DNA from: Methanothermobacter sp. K4
GTDB lineage: Archaea > Methanobacteriota > Methanobacteria > Methanobacteriales > Methanothermobacteraceae
DNA: 32,000 nucleotides
Assembly: GCF_022014235.1 (NCBI RefSeq)
Contig: NZ_JAKLTD010000002.1
Coordinates: 172,284-204,283 of the forward strand
Reading direction: 5' to 3'
In this document: piece after piece, positions 12,054 through 18,261 of the stretch
Layout: every line of letters begins with the position of its first letter
How positions within the stretch are numbered: the first letter of the stretch is position 1
The notes under the pieces: generated by a model
What the model was told of the DNA's origin: nothing
Database searches by the model: none
What the model saw: only the letters and a program-made list of their open reading frames with translations
Program-made: the position numbers and the translations under genes

Positions 12054-12137
12054 ATTCCCTTATTCTAATGTAATCACTGCAGTGGTTCAATATCTACCAA
12101 AAAATTCCCTTATTCTAATGTAATCACTGTAGTGGTT
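12054..12137. repeat. 34-bp direct repeat, 50-bp period, duplicating the 3' coding end of the nucleotidyltransferase gene
   Basis: attcccttattctaatgtaatcactgcagtggtt (12054..12087) versus attcccttattctaatgtaatcactgtagtggtt (12104..12137), 33/34 identical. Copy B encodes NHYSDYIRIRE. Copy A lies just past the stop codon. Confidence 0.9.
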
Positions 12138-12737
12138 TACATTCACCAGTTCAATGGGATCCGATGCCTCAACACCGTACAGCCTGATGCCATCATCCAC
12201 CATCAGATGGAGCAGAGGATTTATGTTTCCATCACCCCGGGGGAGGTATCTTTTAAGGAGATCTGAGCTAGCTGCAAGGGGCATGCCTAGGCCCTCAGCG
12301 CTCTCAAGCCATCCGCTCCTCCCCCTTGCAAGTACCGAAACCGTCTCAGGGTCAGCTTGTTCAGTGATCCTCCCCATGGTCTCAGGGGATACCGCCGGCT
12401 GGTCCCCGGCAACGCAGAGTATGACTTCACCTGAAGCAGAAAGAACACCATTGAGGAGTGATGCCGAGAGTGGAACATCAGGTGGATCGTTCCTCACAAT
12501 CTCCACATCCAGACCTGATATCGCCTCCTCAACCTCCCCTGCATGGTGGCCTGTTACGACGATGCACTCATCCACACCCGCCCTGAGGACTGAATCCACT
12601 GTTTTCTCTATTACAGTAACTGAGTTGAGGGGGAGGAGGAGTTTATGGACAGGCTCAAGGCCGAGTTTCAGCATGTCCCTACACATTCGGCTGCCACGCC
12701 CTGCCGCTGTAATAACCGCTGAGATCAACTCCACCAC
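12087..12737 (-). CDS. MobA-like (NTP_transf_3) nucleotidyltransferase, probably a separate gene starting at GTG 12737/12734
   Basis: 'ISAVITAAGRGSRM' is the GxGxR nucleotide-binding N-terminus that normally sits about 5 aa from the start. 'ECIVVTGHHAGEVEEAI' and 'LCVAGDQPAVS' fit the family. The ORF track merges it into a 613-aa ORF (12087..13928). Confidence 0.75.
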   Translation of the reverse strand: MVELISAVITAAGRGSRMCRDMLKLGLEPVHKLLLPLNSVTVIEKTVDSVLRAGVDECIVVTGHHAGEVEEAISGLDVEIVRNDPPDVPLSASLLNGVLSASGEVILCVAGDQPAVSPETMGRITEQADPETVSVLARGRSGWLESAEGLGMPLAASSDLLKRYLPRGDGNINPLLHLMVDDGIRLYGVEASDPIELVNVNHYSDYIRIREFFGRY

Positions 12738-12738
12738 C

Positions 12739-13907
12739 CTATGCCGGTTCAAGCCTGTAGATCCTGGCGTATATTGTTGTACCCGCACCTGACCCTGTCG
12801 TCCACATCTCAATGAGTACCGGTACCTCCCTGTGTTCCTGACCTTTATTCCGGTTGCCGGGTTGAAGCCGAACAGGACCGCACGGAACTCCCAGGTCATG
12901 CCCCTGGGGAGTGGCATCCCTGCATCAGTGACAACGGCCCTGAGGGCCCTTGCAGGTGGGCATGAGCCGTGGGACGCGTATCCGCCGGGGGCCTCCGGGT
13001 CCCTTGATGCCGTGAACCTGACTGTCTCCTTACCTGAACCCTCACTTCCCGGTGGAATCACTGTGCCATTCCATGCCGCGGCGAATGCCCTCGCATTGAA
13101 GGCCCTCTTGTTATCATCGTACTGGGGGTATGAGCCCAGGTAGCTCACTGCAGTTGATACCAGAACCCTCCTGTAGCCTCCAGTGTACACCATGACAGGC
13201 GCCCCTGAGGGGTAGTTCTCCATGTACTCAATAACCTCCCCCCCAAAGAGCTCCTCTATCCTGCCGGGTGGAACAGGGAGTCTGCCGTCGCTGAAGTTGG
13301 ATAGCTGGTAGTCCAGGACTATCTCGTCGCCATCATCGGCCCTTCTGAACCACCTTTTTATCCTGTTAACGGATTTGTACCTGTGGGGGACTGTGCTGTT
13401 ACTTATACTATCTGCAGGGACGAATCTGACCTTCCTCCCGTTCTCAATGATATCTATACCCTTCTCTCTCTTGACACCATAGGTGTAGGGTGTCTTGTAG
13501 GCCCAGAGGAAGACCGGTGGCTCCTGGACCACCAGTTTATCCCCTGAAATCCTCAGTACTCCAGGACCATCGACAGTGGATCTTCCTGATGGGTCTATCC
13601 CTGAGGTCATCCTGGATATCGGGACGTGCACTGCCCCTGTGAGGAGCGCCTGGAGGAGGTTCCCGGGGTCCATGTAGTTGAATTCATCAAGGATGTAGTC
13701 TGGGTGCAGTATCAGGGGGACGCTCCTCACCCGGGACTCATCGATGACATCCTGACCCTTCAGTACCGTGCTTCCAGGCTCAAGGGCGGCTATCTCGCCA
13801 GGGTGCTGGGGTTCAGCACTTCCCTCGATGTATGCGTCTGATGCTGTTATGATGGCTGCAACAATAAGCAGTGCAATGATGTGCTTACCTGATATGATCC
13901 TCTGCAT
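12739..13907 (-). pseudogene. Exported VanW-like protein, apparently interrupted by a 1-nt frameshift at the G-run 12828..12830 (or a sequencing error, or recoding)
   Basis: Signal anchor MQRIISGKHIIALLIVAAIITASDA. 'HGSCPPARALRAVVTDAGMPL' and 'GIKVRNTG' weakly resemble the VanW core (GGGvCQvSsTLYnAal.AGL.., DlkFkNdtg). The -1 frame continues with 'EVPVLIEMWTTGSGAGTTIYARIYRLEPA*', which is VanW-C-terminus-like, and ends at TAG 12739..12741. Confidence 0.5.
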
Positions 13908-16881
13908 ATCTGAATCCCCCCTCACCAATTATGAGTATGGTGTCATATGGTTCTGCAATTTCAAGGGCCCTGCTGACAGCCTCCTCAACCTGCTCGCGGC
14001 TCGCCCCAAGGGTCCCTGCCCCTGCCCTGGTCCTGCTGGATTCTGTATGGACCACCCTCTTACCCAGGATACCTGAGGCTCTCCTTGCAGCATAGGATGC
14101 CGGTATAACGGTGTCGGCGTCCCTCAGGAGCGATGCGATTTCCAGATCACCATCCATTCCACTCTCAGAGGCCACGGTATTTACGACTATAAGCCTTCCA
14201 TCGGTCCCCTTAAGTTCCTGCATCACAGCCCTCACACCGGCCGGGTTGTGGGCGTAGTCAAGTATAACCCGTGGTGAGTCCAACAGTTTCTGGAACCTTC
14301 CCCTCACACCACTGAATGACTCAATACCCTTCACTATATTATCAATATCCACGCCAAGGGACCATGCAGCGGCAGCTGCTGCCAGTGCATTGTAAACATT
14401 GAAGATCCCTGGGGCCTTAAGTTTAACATCCCTCATCTCGGGGCCTATTACCAGTTTGAAGCCAGTGCCTGATGCCTCCAGTGCCATAACCTCTGGCTGG
14501 GGTCTCCGGTAGCCACAGACACACTGGTAGTCCCCCAGGTGCCCCATGGTTCTGCGTGTATATTTGAGGGTGCTGCCACATTTGGGGCATTCCCTGCCCT
14601 CAGGCATGACCGGCGCCGACTCTATACCCTGGATACCATAGAGAACCACTCTCTCCTCCCTCAGTTCCTCTGCGAATGATGCTACGATGGGGTCATCGGC
14701 GTTCAGTACCATGACCTCAGCTGTATCAATGATCTCCCTCTTGCATTCAATGTAATCAGAGAACCGCCTGCCACCTGATAGGTGGTCCCTTGATATGTTG
14801 GTTATGACACCCACTGAGACCCCTGAGAGGAGGGCTGATTGCCTTATCTCACCCCTCCTCCCGAATGTCCCTATCTCAACAACCGCCACGTCCCCCGGGA
14901 GTCTTGCCTGGAGGGCCGGTACCAGTTCCGTGTTGCCCTGTATGCTGAGGTGGTGCTCTGGCACAGTCTTTCCGGCAGCCCTCATTATGGATTTGAGGAT
15001 ACCTGTGGTTGTGGTCTTTCCATTGGTCCCTGTAACCCCCACCACAGGTTTTTCAACAGGGCACATGTTCAGGACGTCCTCAACGCCTATCACATCAGCG
15101 TCAAGTTCCCTGATCAGATCAAGAACCTTCCTGTTATTTTCGAGGGCTGGTGTGATGGCTATGGTGCCTGCGCGCTTGAGGAACTCCATGCTGTGACCCC
15201 CAAGGTCAAGTTCTATTCCCTCCTCCCTGAAGACATCCTCAAGGGGTGTACTCTCCTTCAGATCCGAGACGATCACCCGGTAACCCCTTGCCCGGAGGTT
15301 CCTTGCCATGAGGCTTCCCACATTCCCGCAGCCTCCAAGGACAACTGTGAAGTCCCTCATTGACTCTATGGCCCTCTCAATATCATTCCTCACGTTATCA
15401 TATGCGTTGACAACCCCCGGGCCCAGGTGGAGTACCGTGTCCCCCTTTTCTGCGATTTCAAGGGCCCTCCTTATGCTATCATATACGCTCCCGGTCTTTA
15501 TGGTTTTATCCCTGCCGGCACCCCCTTCAACCTCAGAGGCTGCTTCCATGTCAATCTTACCTGTTGTCTCATTCTTGGCGCTTACAATCAATATATCGGC
15601 TTTCTCACCAAGTATCTGACCTATCCTGTACTTGTCCCTCACTGTGAGGGTGTCGGGGTTGTCAAGGCTTATTATCAGCCTCCCCTTAAATTCAATGCCC
15701 TCAAAGAGTTTCTCCATACTCTCAGGGTTGTGGGCTGCGTCCATGTAAACCGGGACACCATCAACCTCATCTATGAACTCAAATCTACCCTTTATACCCC
15801 TGAATTCCTCTATTGCATTTTTGATATCCTTAATGTCAAATCCAAGTACCAGTGCAACGGTTATGGCTGCAAGGGCGTTCTCCACGTTGAAGAGGCCCGG
15901 TACCCTGAGTTTTATCCTCTCGGTGAGGGGCCCGGCATGGACCAGCCCTTCATGTTCCTCACAGTTTAAAGATCCGCAGGTGCTGCAGAGGGCCGTTGGT
16001 ATCTCTGAGACCTTCAGGGTGAACTCTGATCCCTCAAGGCCCATGAGGTCTATATCTGATGCGCTGACCTGGGGTTCAGCTGAGCCGGTGAAGGTTCTAT
16101 CCATGAACTCAACTTTCCTTTCGTTCCCCAGACCATACACTACACTTTTAACCTCAAGGTCATCCAGGAGCCCCGCGATAACAGGGTCGTCTCCACAGAG
16201 TACCAGAACACCTCCCGGGGCTATGAGGTTCTTTATTGAGAAGTTCCTCTCAATGTATTCGTCGTAGTCCCTGAACTCATCCATGTGGTCGGGTGTGAGG
16301 TTTGTCACGACACCAGCCACTATTTCAAGGCCGTCGGCCATCCTTATGGTCCCGTGTGGGAGTTCAAACACGGCAATGTCCCTGTTTTTCACATCACCGT
16401 TCACCACAAGTTCTACCAGACCCTCAATGACCAGTGAGTCCTGGATTGATGAGAATGACACTGTCCTGTGGCTTGAGGAAAGTATGTGGTCTATCATGTT
16501 GGTGGTTGTTGTCTTCCCGTCTGTACCTGCAACTCCAACCATGGGGATGCCTATGAGCTGGTTGAGGATCCTCCCTATGTCTGAGGTTGTTATGTGGACC
16601 AGATCCTTCTCCACCCTCCCCAGCATCTCACGTACAGGTGCATCGTGGGGGATGTTGGGTGATACGAAGACGGCGTCGGCCCAGAGCATGTCCTCAATCC
16701 TGTGACCCCCAAACCTGAATCTCACACCCTCCTTTTTCATCTCAGCTATTCTCCTCCTGGCCTTGGGGGGCAGTTCATCCAGTTCCCTGAGGTCATTTAC
16801 AAGCACACTGTTTCCAAGGTGTCTCAGCAATCTTGCGGCGGGTCTGCCAGCGTTTCCATCTCCAAGCACAAGCACGTTCAT
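13885..16881 (-). CDS. Tandem double Mur-ligase-family protein (two complete ATP-dependent amide ligase modules; pseudomurein peptide ligase candidates)
   Basis: Module 1 (about 15361..16881): MNVLVLGDGNAG.., P-loop GVAGTDGKTTTT, DAAHNPES. Module 2 (13885..15360): MRDFTVVLGGCGNVG.., P-loop GVTGTNGKTTTT, C4 zinc ribbon CPKCG..CVCG, DYAHNPAG. There is no in-frame stop at the junction ..AIES|MRDF... The tracked GTG 16902 is probably upstream of the real ATG 16881. Confidence 0.9.
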   Translation of the reverse strand: MNVLVLGDGNAGRPAARLLRHLGNSVLVNDLRELDELPPKARRRIAEMKKEGVRFRFGGHRIEDMLWADAVFVSPNIPHDAPVREMLGRVEKDLVHITTSDIGRILNQLIGIPMVGVAGTDGKTTTTNMIDHILSSSHRTVSFSSIQDSLVIEGLVELVVNGDVKNRDIAVFELPHGTIRMADGLEIVAGVVTNLTPDHMDEFRDYDEYIERNFSIKNLIAPGGVLVLCGDDPVIAGLLDDLEVKSVVYGLGNERKVEFMDRTFTGSAEPQVSASDIDLMGLEGSEFTLKVSEIPTALCSTCGSLNCEEHEGLVHAGPLTERIKLRVPGLFNVENALAAITVALVLGFDIKDIKNAIEEFRGIKGRFEFIDEVDGVPVYMDAAHNPESMEKLFEGIEFKGRLIISLDNPDTLTVRDKYRIGQILGEKADILIVSAKNETTGKIDMEAASEVEGGAGRDKTIKTGSVYDSIRRALEIAEKGDTVLHLGPGVVNAYDNVRNDIERAIESMRDFTVVLGGCGNVGSLMARNLRARGYRVIVSDLKESTPLEDVFREEGIELDLGGHSMEFLKRAGTIAITPALENNRKVLDLIRELDADVIGVEDVLNMCPVEKPVVGVTGTNGKTTTTGILKSIMRAAGKTVPEHHLSIQGNTELVPALQARLPGDVAVVEIGTFGRRGEIRQSALLSGVSVGVITNISRDHLSGGRRFSDYIECKREIIDTAEVMVLNADDPIVASFAEELREERVVLYGIQGIESAPVMPEGRECPKCGSTLKYTRRTMGHLGDYQCVCGYRRPQPEVMALEASGTGFKLVIGPEMRDVKLKAPGIFNVYNALAAAAAAWSLGVDIDNIVKGIESFSGVRGRFQKLLDSPRVILDYAHNPAGVRAVMQELKGTDGRLIVVNTVASESGMDGDLEIASLLRDADTVIPASYAARRASGILGKRVVHTESSRTRAGAGTLGASREQVEEAVSRALEIAEPYDTILIIGEGGFRYAEDHIR

Positions 16882-16913
16882 GTTCCTGATCAATTTATGC
16901 ACCCGTAGATCTG

Positions 16914-16921
16914 TTTTATAA
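16914..16921 (-). promoter_or_regulatory. TATA-like box (TTATAAAA on the minus strand) upstream of the double-ligase gene
   Basis: Plus-strand ttttataa at 16914..16921, about 35 nt upstream of ATG 16881. It implies an internal promoter and a short leader. Confidence 0.35.
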
Positions 16922-17049
16922 GTGAAAGGTATGCATTGTCATAAGTAATAAGTTTATGATCAACCGGGAGTTCCCGGATGGTAAAGAAATATGCAGTCCA
17001 TTTATTATTATTGGTTATTCCTATATACCAGTTACGCAGGTGATGGGCT

Positions 17050-18261
17050 TCATTCACAGGAGGATAGTTTCTCGAGTTCTTCCTGGACCCTGATTATCTT
17101 ATCCTGGCCGTTTCCACCCACAAAGACTCTCCTGTATTTCCTGGAAAACTCAAGGACCATGCGGGGGATTTCCTCAGTGTCATCAACTGTTATGACCTCT
17201 GAGTGGATTTCAAGGCCCTTAAGGTATTCCAGTACCATGTCAACCGTGTCCTCAAGGCCAGGGAATATCACAAGGACCCTGGGGGGTGACTCTGCAACCT
17301 CATCCAGGATATGGAGGCGCCACCTCTCTGACCTCCTGGGTGTCCCCATGAACATAACATCGAATTCTGATTCAGAGAGTACCGCCCTCATGGCATGGGG
17401 ATTGTCGGTTTTACCTGCAACGACAGATGCTCCGTTGATGATGAACGACCTTATACGGCCCTTTACAGGCTCAAAACTGGCAAGAGCCTCCTTTATGATA
17501 TCCTCCGGAACCCCAAGATACCTGAGGGCCTCTGATGCCGCCCCTGCGTTCAGTCTGTTGAATCCGCCCTCAACCCTCAGGGGCCCTGTGTACTCGCTGT
17601 AGGTCCTGAGAACCCGGGGGGCCTCCATGAGTTCCCCATCTGACTCGCTGGGGTCGATCACGGCGTTCCTCCCCTTAAGGAATTCTGCCACCGCCCTCCT
17701 GTAATTCTCAATGGATCCATGGAAGTCCATGTGGTCCTCTCCAAGGTTTGTGAGGACCACGAGGTCAATGTCGAAGCACTCTGATGCAAATTCCAGGGTC
17801 ATGTCGCAGACCTCCACCACAAGGTAATCGAATTCCTCCTCAGATGCCCTTAAAAAGAGTTCTGTGTAGCCCCCAAATCCCCCTCCAGCGTTTCCACCAA
17901 GAAGCACCCTTTCACCTGCACATTCAAGTACATGTGCTATCATTGTGGCGGTTGTGGTCTTTCCATTGGTCCCTGTGACCACGATGGTTGTGGGTTTTCT
18001 GTGGCCCTCAAGGACCCTGCAGAGGAGTTTATCCCTGAACCGCTCCATGAGTTCGGTTTTTATCATTGATGGGCTGATTACAACTGCATCTGCAGCCTCT
18101 ATCTTCCCTGTATCATAAAAGCCCAGGTCAAGGTCAACCCCCTCAGGCTTTGAAGGAATTTCACGTCTTATGTCACTTGCATATACACTGTGACCCCTTC
18201 TCTTTAGTGACTCAACTGCCCTTAAACCCTCAGCTCCAAGTCCCAGCACCGCAACCCTCAT
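17050..18261 (-). CDS. Mur-ligase-family protein (MurD-like architecture; pseudomurein peptide ligase candidate)
   Basis: Rossmann-like N-terminus MRVAVLGLGAEGLRAV, P-loop VVTGTNGKTTTA, 'VVLTNLGEDHMDFHGS' and 'GKTDNPHAMRAV'. RBS is GGTGA upstream of ATG 18261. Confidence 0.9.
   Translation of the reverse strand: MRVAVLGLGAEGLRAVESLKRRGHSVYASDIRREIPSKPEGVDLDLGFYDTGKIEAADAVVISPSMIKTELMERFRDKLLCRVLEGHRKPTTIVVTGTNGKTTTATMIAHVLECAGERVLLGGNAGGGFGGYTELFLRASEEEFDYLVVEVCDMTLEFASECFDIDLVVLTNLGEDHMDFHGSIENYRRAVAEFLKGRNAVIDPSESDGELMEAPRVLRTYSEYTGPLRVEGGFNRLNAGAASEALRYLGVPEDIIKEALASFEPVKGRIRSFIINGASVVAGKTDNPHAMRAVLSESEFDVMFMGTPRRSERWRLHILDEVAESPPRVLVIFPGLEDTVDMVLEYLKGLEIHSEVITVDDTEEIPRMVLEFSRKYRRVFVGGNGQDKIIRVQEELEKLSSCE

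Follow-up and report, generated by a model that had tools for sequence, protein, structure and literature searches.

A 1005-codon open reading frame of Methanothermobacter sp. K4 very probably specifies a single bifunctional chain of about 998-1002 residues, in which a pMurD1-type ligase at the N-terminus runs without a linker into a pMurC-type ligase at the C-terminus, both being ATP-dependent amino-acid ligases that build the pseudomurein stem peptide. The frame lies in a 32,000-nucleotide stretch of contig NZ_JAKLTD010000002.1 (the window, to which all coordinates refer; (-) denotes its reverse strand). The fusion has already been reported in Methanothermobacter and Methanobrevibacter (Subedi 2021, PMC10117817; Lupo 2025, PMC11915815), in the legend of Fig. 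2 in the former and under the term Mur-alpha-Mur-beta fusion protein in the latter. The protein described here corresponds to this published pMurD1-pMurC fusion of cluster type 1A in its families, their order and the gene cluster, and differs from it in nothing essential. The gene cluster and the zinc ribbon are also published; the finding is correct and what we add to it is incremental. Both papers mention the fusion in passing, without describing the junction, counting the distribution or testing function, and literature on the locus tags MTH530, MTH531 and MTBMA yielded nothing relevant. The new details concern the anatomy of the junction, the distribution of the fusion, the non-equivalence and decay of a cysteine knuckle in pMurD1, the homology of the pMurC ribbon with that of MurT, and an alternative pMurD2-pMurD1 fusion.

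Two complete Mur-type ligases in one open reading frame

The frame extends over 13885..16902 (-), from a GTG to the stop codon at 13885..13887, and contains no internal stop. Annotated homologues of the protein have 996-1002 aa, and the real start is likely the TTG at 16891..16893 or the ATG at 16879..16881. Pfam recognizes Mur_ligase_M and Mur_ligase_C twice each and MurD-like_N at residues 520-606, while NCBIfam assigns residues 8-514 to pMurD1 and residues 520-1001 to pMurC. Each module possesses an N-terminal, a central and a C-terminal domain and is thus a complete three-domain ligase of the Mur type: module 1 (residues 8-514; 15361..16881 (-)) has the pMurD1 model NF053646 as its best family and is of the Mur-beta type, and module 2 (residues 515-1005; 13888..15360 (-)) is identified as pMurC, or Mur-alpha, by NF053645 and by the structure 6vr7. 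An earlier note, made from the sequence alone, had described two complete Mur ligases arranged head-to-tail, and these domains together with the open frame bear it out.

Module 2 scores 651.9 bits with NF053645 (cutoff 560), matching profile positions 2-490 of 492. It also matches Mfer336, the pMurC of Methanothermus fervidus (6VR7), from end to end (residues 519-1002, E 1e-163, 53% identity), with a Foldseek TM-score of 0.92 and an rmsd of 2.5 over 491 columns, in agreement with the three-domain fold. Mfer336, at about 490 aa, stands alone, whereas in the fused protein a pMurD1 is covalently attached ahead of this fold. Module 1 reaches 479.5 bits with NF053646, below the cutoff of 610, yet this remains its top family and positions 1-460 of 465 are covered; the low score fits an insertion of 40-50 residues relative to the 465-position profile, about 45 residues in the family alignment. 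In the tree, the first-half modules and stand-alone pMurD1 proteins form one clade, apart from the pMurC clade (100* in both cases). Other families were excluded by score, as the two MurT equivalog models gave 156.8 and 116.1 bits (cutoff 800) and the bifunctional MurE/MurF model NF008896 gave 189.8 bits (cutoff 1023).

Every canonical Mur-ligase motif is retained by both halves. Across 48 fused homologues, neither half varies in the P-loop, the glutamate, the DH motif, GRFE or DxAHNP. In module 1, the P-loop GVAGTDGKTTTT lies at 16501..16536 (-), with G123, G126, D128, G129, K130 and T131 invariant in the 48 homologues, and DAAHNP at 15724..15741 (-). In module 2, the P-loop GVTGTNGKTTTT occupies 15004..15039 (-), with T624 to T630 invariant in the fused homologues, and DYAHNP lies at 14242..14259 (-). 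A coordinate check confirmed the stated positions of the P-loops, the DxxHNP motifs and the cysteine clusters.

Cysteine motifs of the two halves

The C4 zinc ribbon of module 2, CPxC-x18-CxC, lies at 14512..14589 (-), and its cysteines C772, C775, C794 and C796 are invariant. They align with C257, C260, C279 and C281 of 6vr7, the crystal structure in which the C4 zinc site of pMurC was seen (PMC10117817). The earlier comparison of this ribbon with MurT proved sound: the motif aligns column for column with Staphylococcus aureus MurT (7q8e, 6gs2), which indicates that the pMurC ribbon is homologous to the bacterial one. The shared feature is the central-domain ribbon of MurT in the MurT/GatD lipid II isoglutaminyl synthase (6GS2, 7Q8E, 6FQB); in contrast to that system, the Pfam search found no DUF1727 C-terminal domain in the fused protein, and there is no GatD partner at the fused locus.

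Module 1 carries a shorter knuckle, CxxC-x4-C-x2-H (15952..15987 (-)), in which Glu316 replaces the fourth cysteine and is followed by His317. In most genera this knuckle reads CxxC-x4-CxC; it has degenerated to C3H here and is deleted in one congener (G003). The two clusters had been thought to sit at equivalent places, a view that the family alignment does not sustain, since it reveals two different insertions: in pMurC the ribbon comes ahead of the two canonical strands in the central domain, and the pMurD1 cluster is inserted in the loop between those strands and is absent from short pMurD1 proteins. Homology of the two clusters was considered and set aside; BLASTP and global hhalign, the latter in conflict with the family alignment, pair some of the cysteines but disagree with each other, and the family alignment was followed.

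Decay of the knuckle bears on whether the pMurD1 half has degenerated into a scaffold without catalytic activity, serving only to stabilize or regulate pMurC. The sub-cutoff family score, the knuckle (degenerate in this genus and deleted in G003), a frameshift inside the pMurD1 half of genome G007 and the lack of product from PMurD in vitro (PMC12996149) would all suit such a role. Against this, all 48 homologues share the P-loop, Glu180, the DH motif, GRFE and DAAHNP without variation, the score is compatible with the insertion, and the frame is intact in G002, which is near-identical to G007, so that the shift looks specific to the strain or its sequence. We regard a mere scaffold as very improbable.

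A linker-less junction

At the junction (15337..15402 (-)), the helix that closes pMurD1 (residues 501-516) continues directly into the first strand of pMurC, beta-1 (residues 518-522). Within the junction stands the Met515 codon at 15358..15360, an in-frame ATG in the context gag tca ATG agg, and translation of the frame agrees with the earlier observation that no stop occurs there. The AlphaFold prediction of the tandem, which had been suggested as a check, gave a divided answer: the domains are confident (pLDDT 86.8 and 85.7) and pLDDT is 82-91 across the junction, but the inter-module geometry and interface carry no confidence, with a pTM of 0.56 over the whole chain and 0.66 over a piece around the junction (residues 360-640).

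Codon 515 is ATG in seven of the nine congeners, GTG in one and TTC in G003, and methionine is absent from the junction of all fused Methanobacteriaceae sequences. Since Met515 is not conserved, the fused chain must be functional, and with TTC in G003 and no methionine in the Methanobacteriaceae junctions, pMurC cannot be made separately there. In Methanothermobacter, the fused gene could nonetheless yield some additional free pMurC by internal initiation at Met515. The ATG or GTG found in most congeners and a purine-rich GAGAGG or GAGGAGG about 12 nt upstream of the ATG in seven of the nine look like remnants of the start codon and ribosome-binding site that a formerly separate gene possessed. 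The TTC codon of G003 and the methionine-free fused genes of the other family argue against such initiation, 12 nt is a long distance for a ribosome-binding site, and the purine-rich stretch is accounted for by coding constraint, because it specifies the conserved E-(R/E)-A in the final helix of pMurD1. Internal initiation is therefore considered unlikely, and a single fused product is the preferred reading.

Gene neighbourhood and distribution of the fusion

The fused gene belongs to pseudomurein gene cluster 1, in the order pMurD2, pMurD1-pMurC, PmurA and PmurB, and its pMurD1 part takes the cluster 1 position between pMurD2 and pMurC. Upstream lies pMurD2 (403 aa; 17050..18261 (-); NF053647 553.4 bits, cutoff 550), separated from the fused gene by an AT-rich spacer of 147 nt (16903..17049 (-)). 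A putative TATA-like TTATAAAA, read from the sequence, occurs in this spacer about 35 nt before the ATG at 16881. A promoter and terminator scan found sites no more often than in shuffled sequence, its patterns being bacterial consensus and uninformative for an archaeon. Downstream, PmurA (Mfer335 family) and PmurB (Mfer334 family) appear at 12087..13928 (-) as one 613-aa frame because of a 1-nt deletion near 12814..12830, and their ATG (13905..13907) lies inside the final part of the fused gene.

This deletion matters for the earlier suggestion that a stop codon was lost recently, or that a sequencing or assembly error joined two genes whose separate products of about 55 kDa are really made: the genome is a 12-contig draft, and the 1-nt indel in the neighbouring PmurA resembles such an error. 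The comparison with orthologues, however, found one fused gene with a stop-free junction in 9/9 species genomes of Methanothermobacter, including all eight other species and down to 75% identity; a single frame crosses the junction in all nine congeners and in genome G011. The junction is also open in 32 further species from 14 other genera of the order, and in total stop-free matches cross the junction in 41 of 328 species genomes. Proteins of 983-1201 aa that span the junction have been annotated independently in NCBI, JGI, ENA and Logan; they make up about 48 clusters, from Methanothermobacter, Methanobacterium, Methanobrevibacter and Ca. Methanobinarius, and the protein of the window is 92-94% identical to annotated Methanothermobacter proteins. 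An open junction in the whole genus and in 14 others is not a recent stop loss, and the fusion is also published (PMC10117817, PMC11915815). Recent loss or error is effectively refuted, and the fusion is old, selection having maintained it in many genera.

The joint tree places the fused genus as sister to a family whose genes are split, which requires at least 2-3 changes of state; gain and re-splitting cannot be told apart from this tree, whose long branches make deep rooting unsafe. The pMurD1-pMurC fusion is found in 15 genera; a further genus has pMurD2-pMurD1 fused instead, in each of its 23 species. A triple fusion in genus g8, suggested by open frames of about 1450 aa, was rejected, as that figure reads through an in-frame stop between two frames; six loci that were cut out each consist of a pMurD2-pMurD1 frame of 933-944 aa followed by a separate pMurC of 511-525 aa.

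Function of the fused ligases

By homology, the pMurC half would ligate L-Ala (or Thr) to UDP-Glu in an ATP-dependent reaction and would bear a structural C4 zinc ribbon as in 6VR7; the activity itself was shown biochemically for the unfused Methanobrevibacter ruminantium enzyme only (PMC12996149). The pMurD1 half putatively catalyses one late addition, of Ala or Glu; in vitro, PMurD displayed ATPase activity but yielded no product (PMC12996149).

The earlier note had read the covalent tandem as a sign of substrate channelling between two consecutive stem-peptide additions. A precedent of this kind is MurE-MurF of Bordetella pertussis (8F5D; PMC10214165), in which two complete Mur ligases from adjacent genes are likewise joined head to tail without a linker and catalyse consecutive steps. 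This protein is the second-best Foldseek match (911 columns), with 17% sequence identity and from different families, and its overall TM-score of only 0.34-0.42 does not show a shared geometry. Unlike MurE and MurF, pMurD1 and pMurC probably do not act consecutively: pMurC acts on UDP-Glu, pMurE takes its product, and pMurD1 and pMurD2 are proposed for the last two additions (PMC12996149), so the two fused ligases would not be neighbours in the pathway. Moreover, the module order merely copies the gene order, another genus fuses pMurD2 with pMurD1, the enzymes joined in many bacterial Mur chimeras do not act consecutively (PMC10214165), and AlphaFold predicts no confident interface (pTM 0.56). 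Channelling is thus unsupported and appears decidedly improbable; the fusion probably does not channel between consecutive steps. Instead, its main effect may be to ensure that ligases which already cooperate are co-expressed 1:1 and assemble together.

A bolder and rather doubtful proposal is that, in every pseudomurein producer, the three ligases of cluster 1 derived from MurD come together in a single physical assembly. The alternative in-order fusions pMurD1-pMurC and pMurD2-pMurD1 would then serve as Rosetta-stone evidence. The rigid helix-to-strand join would hold the pMurD1 C-terminal domain in a fixed position against the N-domain with which pMurC binds UDP, and would thereby couple non-consecutive steps of stem-peptide synthesis, and the zinc ribbon shared with MurT might be an inherited docking or structural element. 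If true, such inheritance would contradict literature that calls the ribbon unique to archaea. Pseudomurein synthesis has been only partly assigned to enzymes. A natural pMurD1-pMurC chimera, occurring in a thermophile that grows easily and can now be manipulated genetically, lends itself to assigning the pMurD1 step, and it could serve to ask whether the ligases form a complex.

Two ligase modules in one reading frame

The minus-strand ORF at 13885..16902 contains 1005 open codons counted from a GTG, and the fused gene probably starts at TTG 16891..16893 or ATG 16879..16881; annotated homologues are 996-1002 aa long. In Pfam, Mur_ligase_M and Mur_ligase_C each match twice and a MurD-like N domain covers residues 520-606, bearing out the earlier note's description of two Mur-ligase modules arranged head-to-tail in one frame. 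NCBIfam assigns residues 520-1001 (module 2) to pMurC (Mur-alpha) at 651.9 bits, which exceeds its cutoff of 560, and residues 8-514 (module 1) to pMurD1 (Mur-beta), the top family for this module yet below its cutoff (479.5 versus 610 bits). That note's positions for the P-loops, the two Cys clusters and the DxxHNP motifs hold, and the junction indeed lacks an in-frame stop: ATG 15358..15360 is in frame between sense codons (gag tca ATG agg). Across an alignment of 48 fused homologues, both halves keep invariant P-loop Gly/Lys/Thr residues, a central-domain Glu (E180 in module 1, E676 in module 2), the DH motif (D205-H206 and D706-H707), GRF(E/Q) and D-x-A-H-N-P. Judged by these motifs, neither half looks degenerate.

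The surrounding pseudomurein locus corresponds to what Subedi et al. 2021 (PMC10117817) call "gene cluster 1". The upstream neighbour, likewise on the minus strand, is pMurD2 (17050..18261), with 553.4 bits where the cutoff is 550. A 147-nt AT-rich spacer with TATA-like boxes (16903..17049) separates it from the fused gene, which may have its own promoter within the cluster. Downstream, PmurA (Mfer335 family) and PmurB (Mfer334 family) overlap the stop of the fused gene and read as a single 613-aa minus-strand ORF (12087..13928) only because one base is absent from a short G/C run near 12814..12830. The extra base near the end of PmurA is present in all eight congeners and in G011, a genome from another family, where a conserved tail (..TIYARIYRLEPA) closes PmurA and PmurB overlaps it as a gene of its own. 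A misassembly or a frameshift peculiar to this strain, rather than a second fusion, probably accounts for the joint ORF.

Distribution and age of the fusion

Orthologous loci, which the earlier note had proposed to compare for one gene or two, show both states among 31 related genomes: one unbroken frame in 9/9 species genomes of the genus (75-100% identity) and in G011 (1032 aa, 54% identity), and two adjacent genes, confirmed by ORF listing, in a third family. A database search with residues 380-660 recovered some 48 protein clusters (983-1201 aa), each spanning the whole junction, from sources named Methanothermobacter, Methanobacterium alcaliphilum, Methanobrevibacter filiformis and Candidatus Methanobinarius, among others. 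A search of all of the order's 328 species genomes with junction residues 440-600 gave stop-free matches across the junction in 41, from 15 genera. Given this spread of the open junction, the suggestion that a stop codon was lost recently is excluded, as is a sequencing error. The pMurD1-pMurC fusion is real, and it is already known: the Fig. 2 legend of PMC10117817 lists it (type 1A, M. thermautotrophicus delta-H and M. marburgensis), and the text of PMC11915815 also states it.

In a joint tree of both modules, pMurD1 and pMurC form separate families (100* each). The fused Methanothermobacter genes are sister to split genes of family f3 in both halves (87 and 99*), and together they are nested among lineages in which fusion is frequent. 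The tree requires a minimum of two to three state changes and fits gain and re-splitting alike.

Other arrangements occur in the order. All 23 species of genus g8 carry pMurD2-pMurD1 fused in a 933-944 aa ORF with pMurC separate, a fusion not mentioned in the text of the published pseudomurein papers examined; some 30 protein clusters of 928-935 aa that carry the name Methanobacterium are consistent with it. At g8 loci L013-L018 and L035 (G136, G137, G127, G124, G123, G143, G019), pMurC often lies in frame with the fused ORF, one stop codon further on. An apparent triple fusion in g8 was rejected, its 1450-aa open frame comprising ORFs of 934 and 515 aa with the in-frame stop outside the matched stretch. 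In G007, a genome of the same genus (locus L009, one contig of ~1.8 Mb), a frameshift around residue 275 breaks the pMurD1 half and leaves ORFs of 312 and 752 aa, and the frame is locally disturbed again after the junction; G002, which is nearly identical, is intact, and the G007 lesions are likely sequence errors or strain-specific. G026 (L036/L037) combines a long Cys-knuckle pMurD1 of the fused-gene type with a divergent pMurC ~78 kb away, and G017 (L046/L047) shows the converse; these mixtures suggest gene replacement or transfer among Methanobacteriaceae.

Anatomy of the junction

In fused proteins, the pMurD1 end (..GPGVVNAY-x-NV-x-x-DI-x-x-AI..) passes through 2-5 residues into VV(L/I)GGCG, the first pMurC strand. 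AlphaFold models of the whole protein (pLDDT 86.8) and of residues 360-640 (pLDDT 85.7) both join helix to strand, an unbroken helix at 501-516 running directly into strand 518-522 (local pLDDT 82-91). Confidence in the relative module placement (pTM 0.56 and 0.66, respectively) is too low to define an interface. Among the congeners, codon 515 reads ATG in seven, GTG in one and TTC in one, and no Met is found at the junction in fused genes of the other family. To judge from these codons, the fused chain must thus be the functional form in species lacking the Met; in this strain, additional internal initiation at codon 515 is possible.

Two different cysteine elements

The module 2 ribbon (CPxC-x18-CxC; 14512..14589, minus strand) has all four Cys invariant in the 48 fused homologues. 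It aligns with the zinc ribbon in the crystal structure of Methanothermus fervidus pMurC (Mfer336, 6vr7; PMC10117817), matches the Staphylococcus aureus MurT ribbon (7q8e, 6gs2) column by column, and likewise aligns residue for residue with the bacterial MurT ribbon in PDB 9sq9. The earlier remark that a central-domain ribbon is a MurT-type feature was therefore right. The literature describes the motif as unique to archaeal ligases or missing from bacterial murein ligases, the latter in Cha 2026. On the alignments, MurT and pMurC may be linked by common inheritance of the ribbon.

The module 1 cluster is a different element, a compact CxxC-x4-CxC knuckle in most genera, inserted in the loop between two canonical strands before the PG-x-x-N-V-E-N-A-L helix. 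Short pMurD1 proteins (463-490 aa) of six genera lack it, Methanothermobacter has Glu for the fourth Cys with an adjacent His (C-E-E-H), and G003 has lost the entire knuckle. A global profile-profile alignment instead matches the CxC of pMurD1 to the second knuckle of pMurC; the insertion seen in the pMurD1 alignment was given more weight because it is consistent with the canonical strand order.

Functional meaning of the fusion

By homology, the pMurC half would add L-Ala (or Thr) to UDP-Glu. pMurE adds Lys after this step, and pMurD1 and pMurD2 have been proposed for the last additions, with ATPase activity alone observed (PMC12996149). On this order of steps, the two fused modules probably do not act consecutively, and the channelling of two consecutive additions put forward in the earlier note is unsupported. 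Many bacterial Mur chimeras also join non-consecutive enzymes, and stoichiometric co-expression and co-assembly has been argued for such chimeras (PMC10214165). The Bordetella pertussis MurE-MurF structure (8f5d) is the second Foldseek match to the fused protein, at a TM-score of just 0.34-0.42. In the simplest reading, the pMurD1-pMurC fusion would give stoichiometric co-expression and co-assembly of enzymes from adjacent genes.
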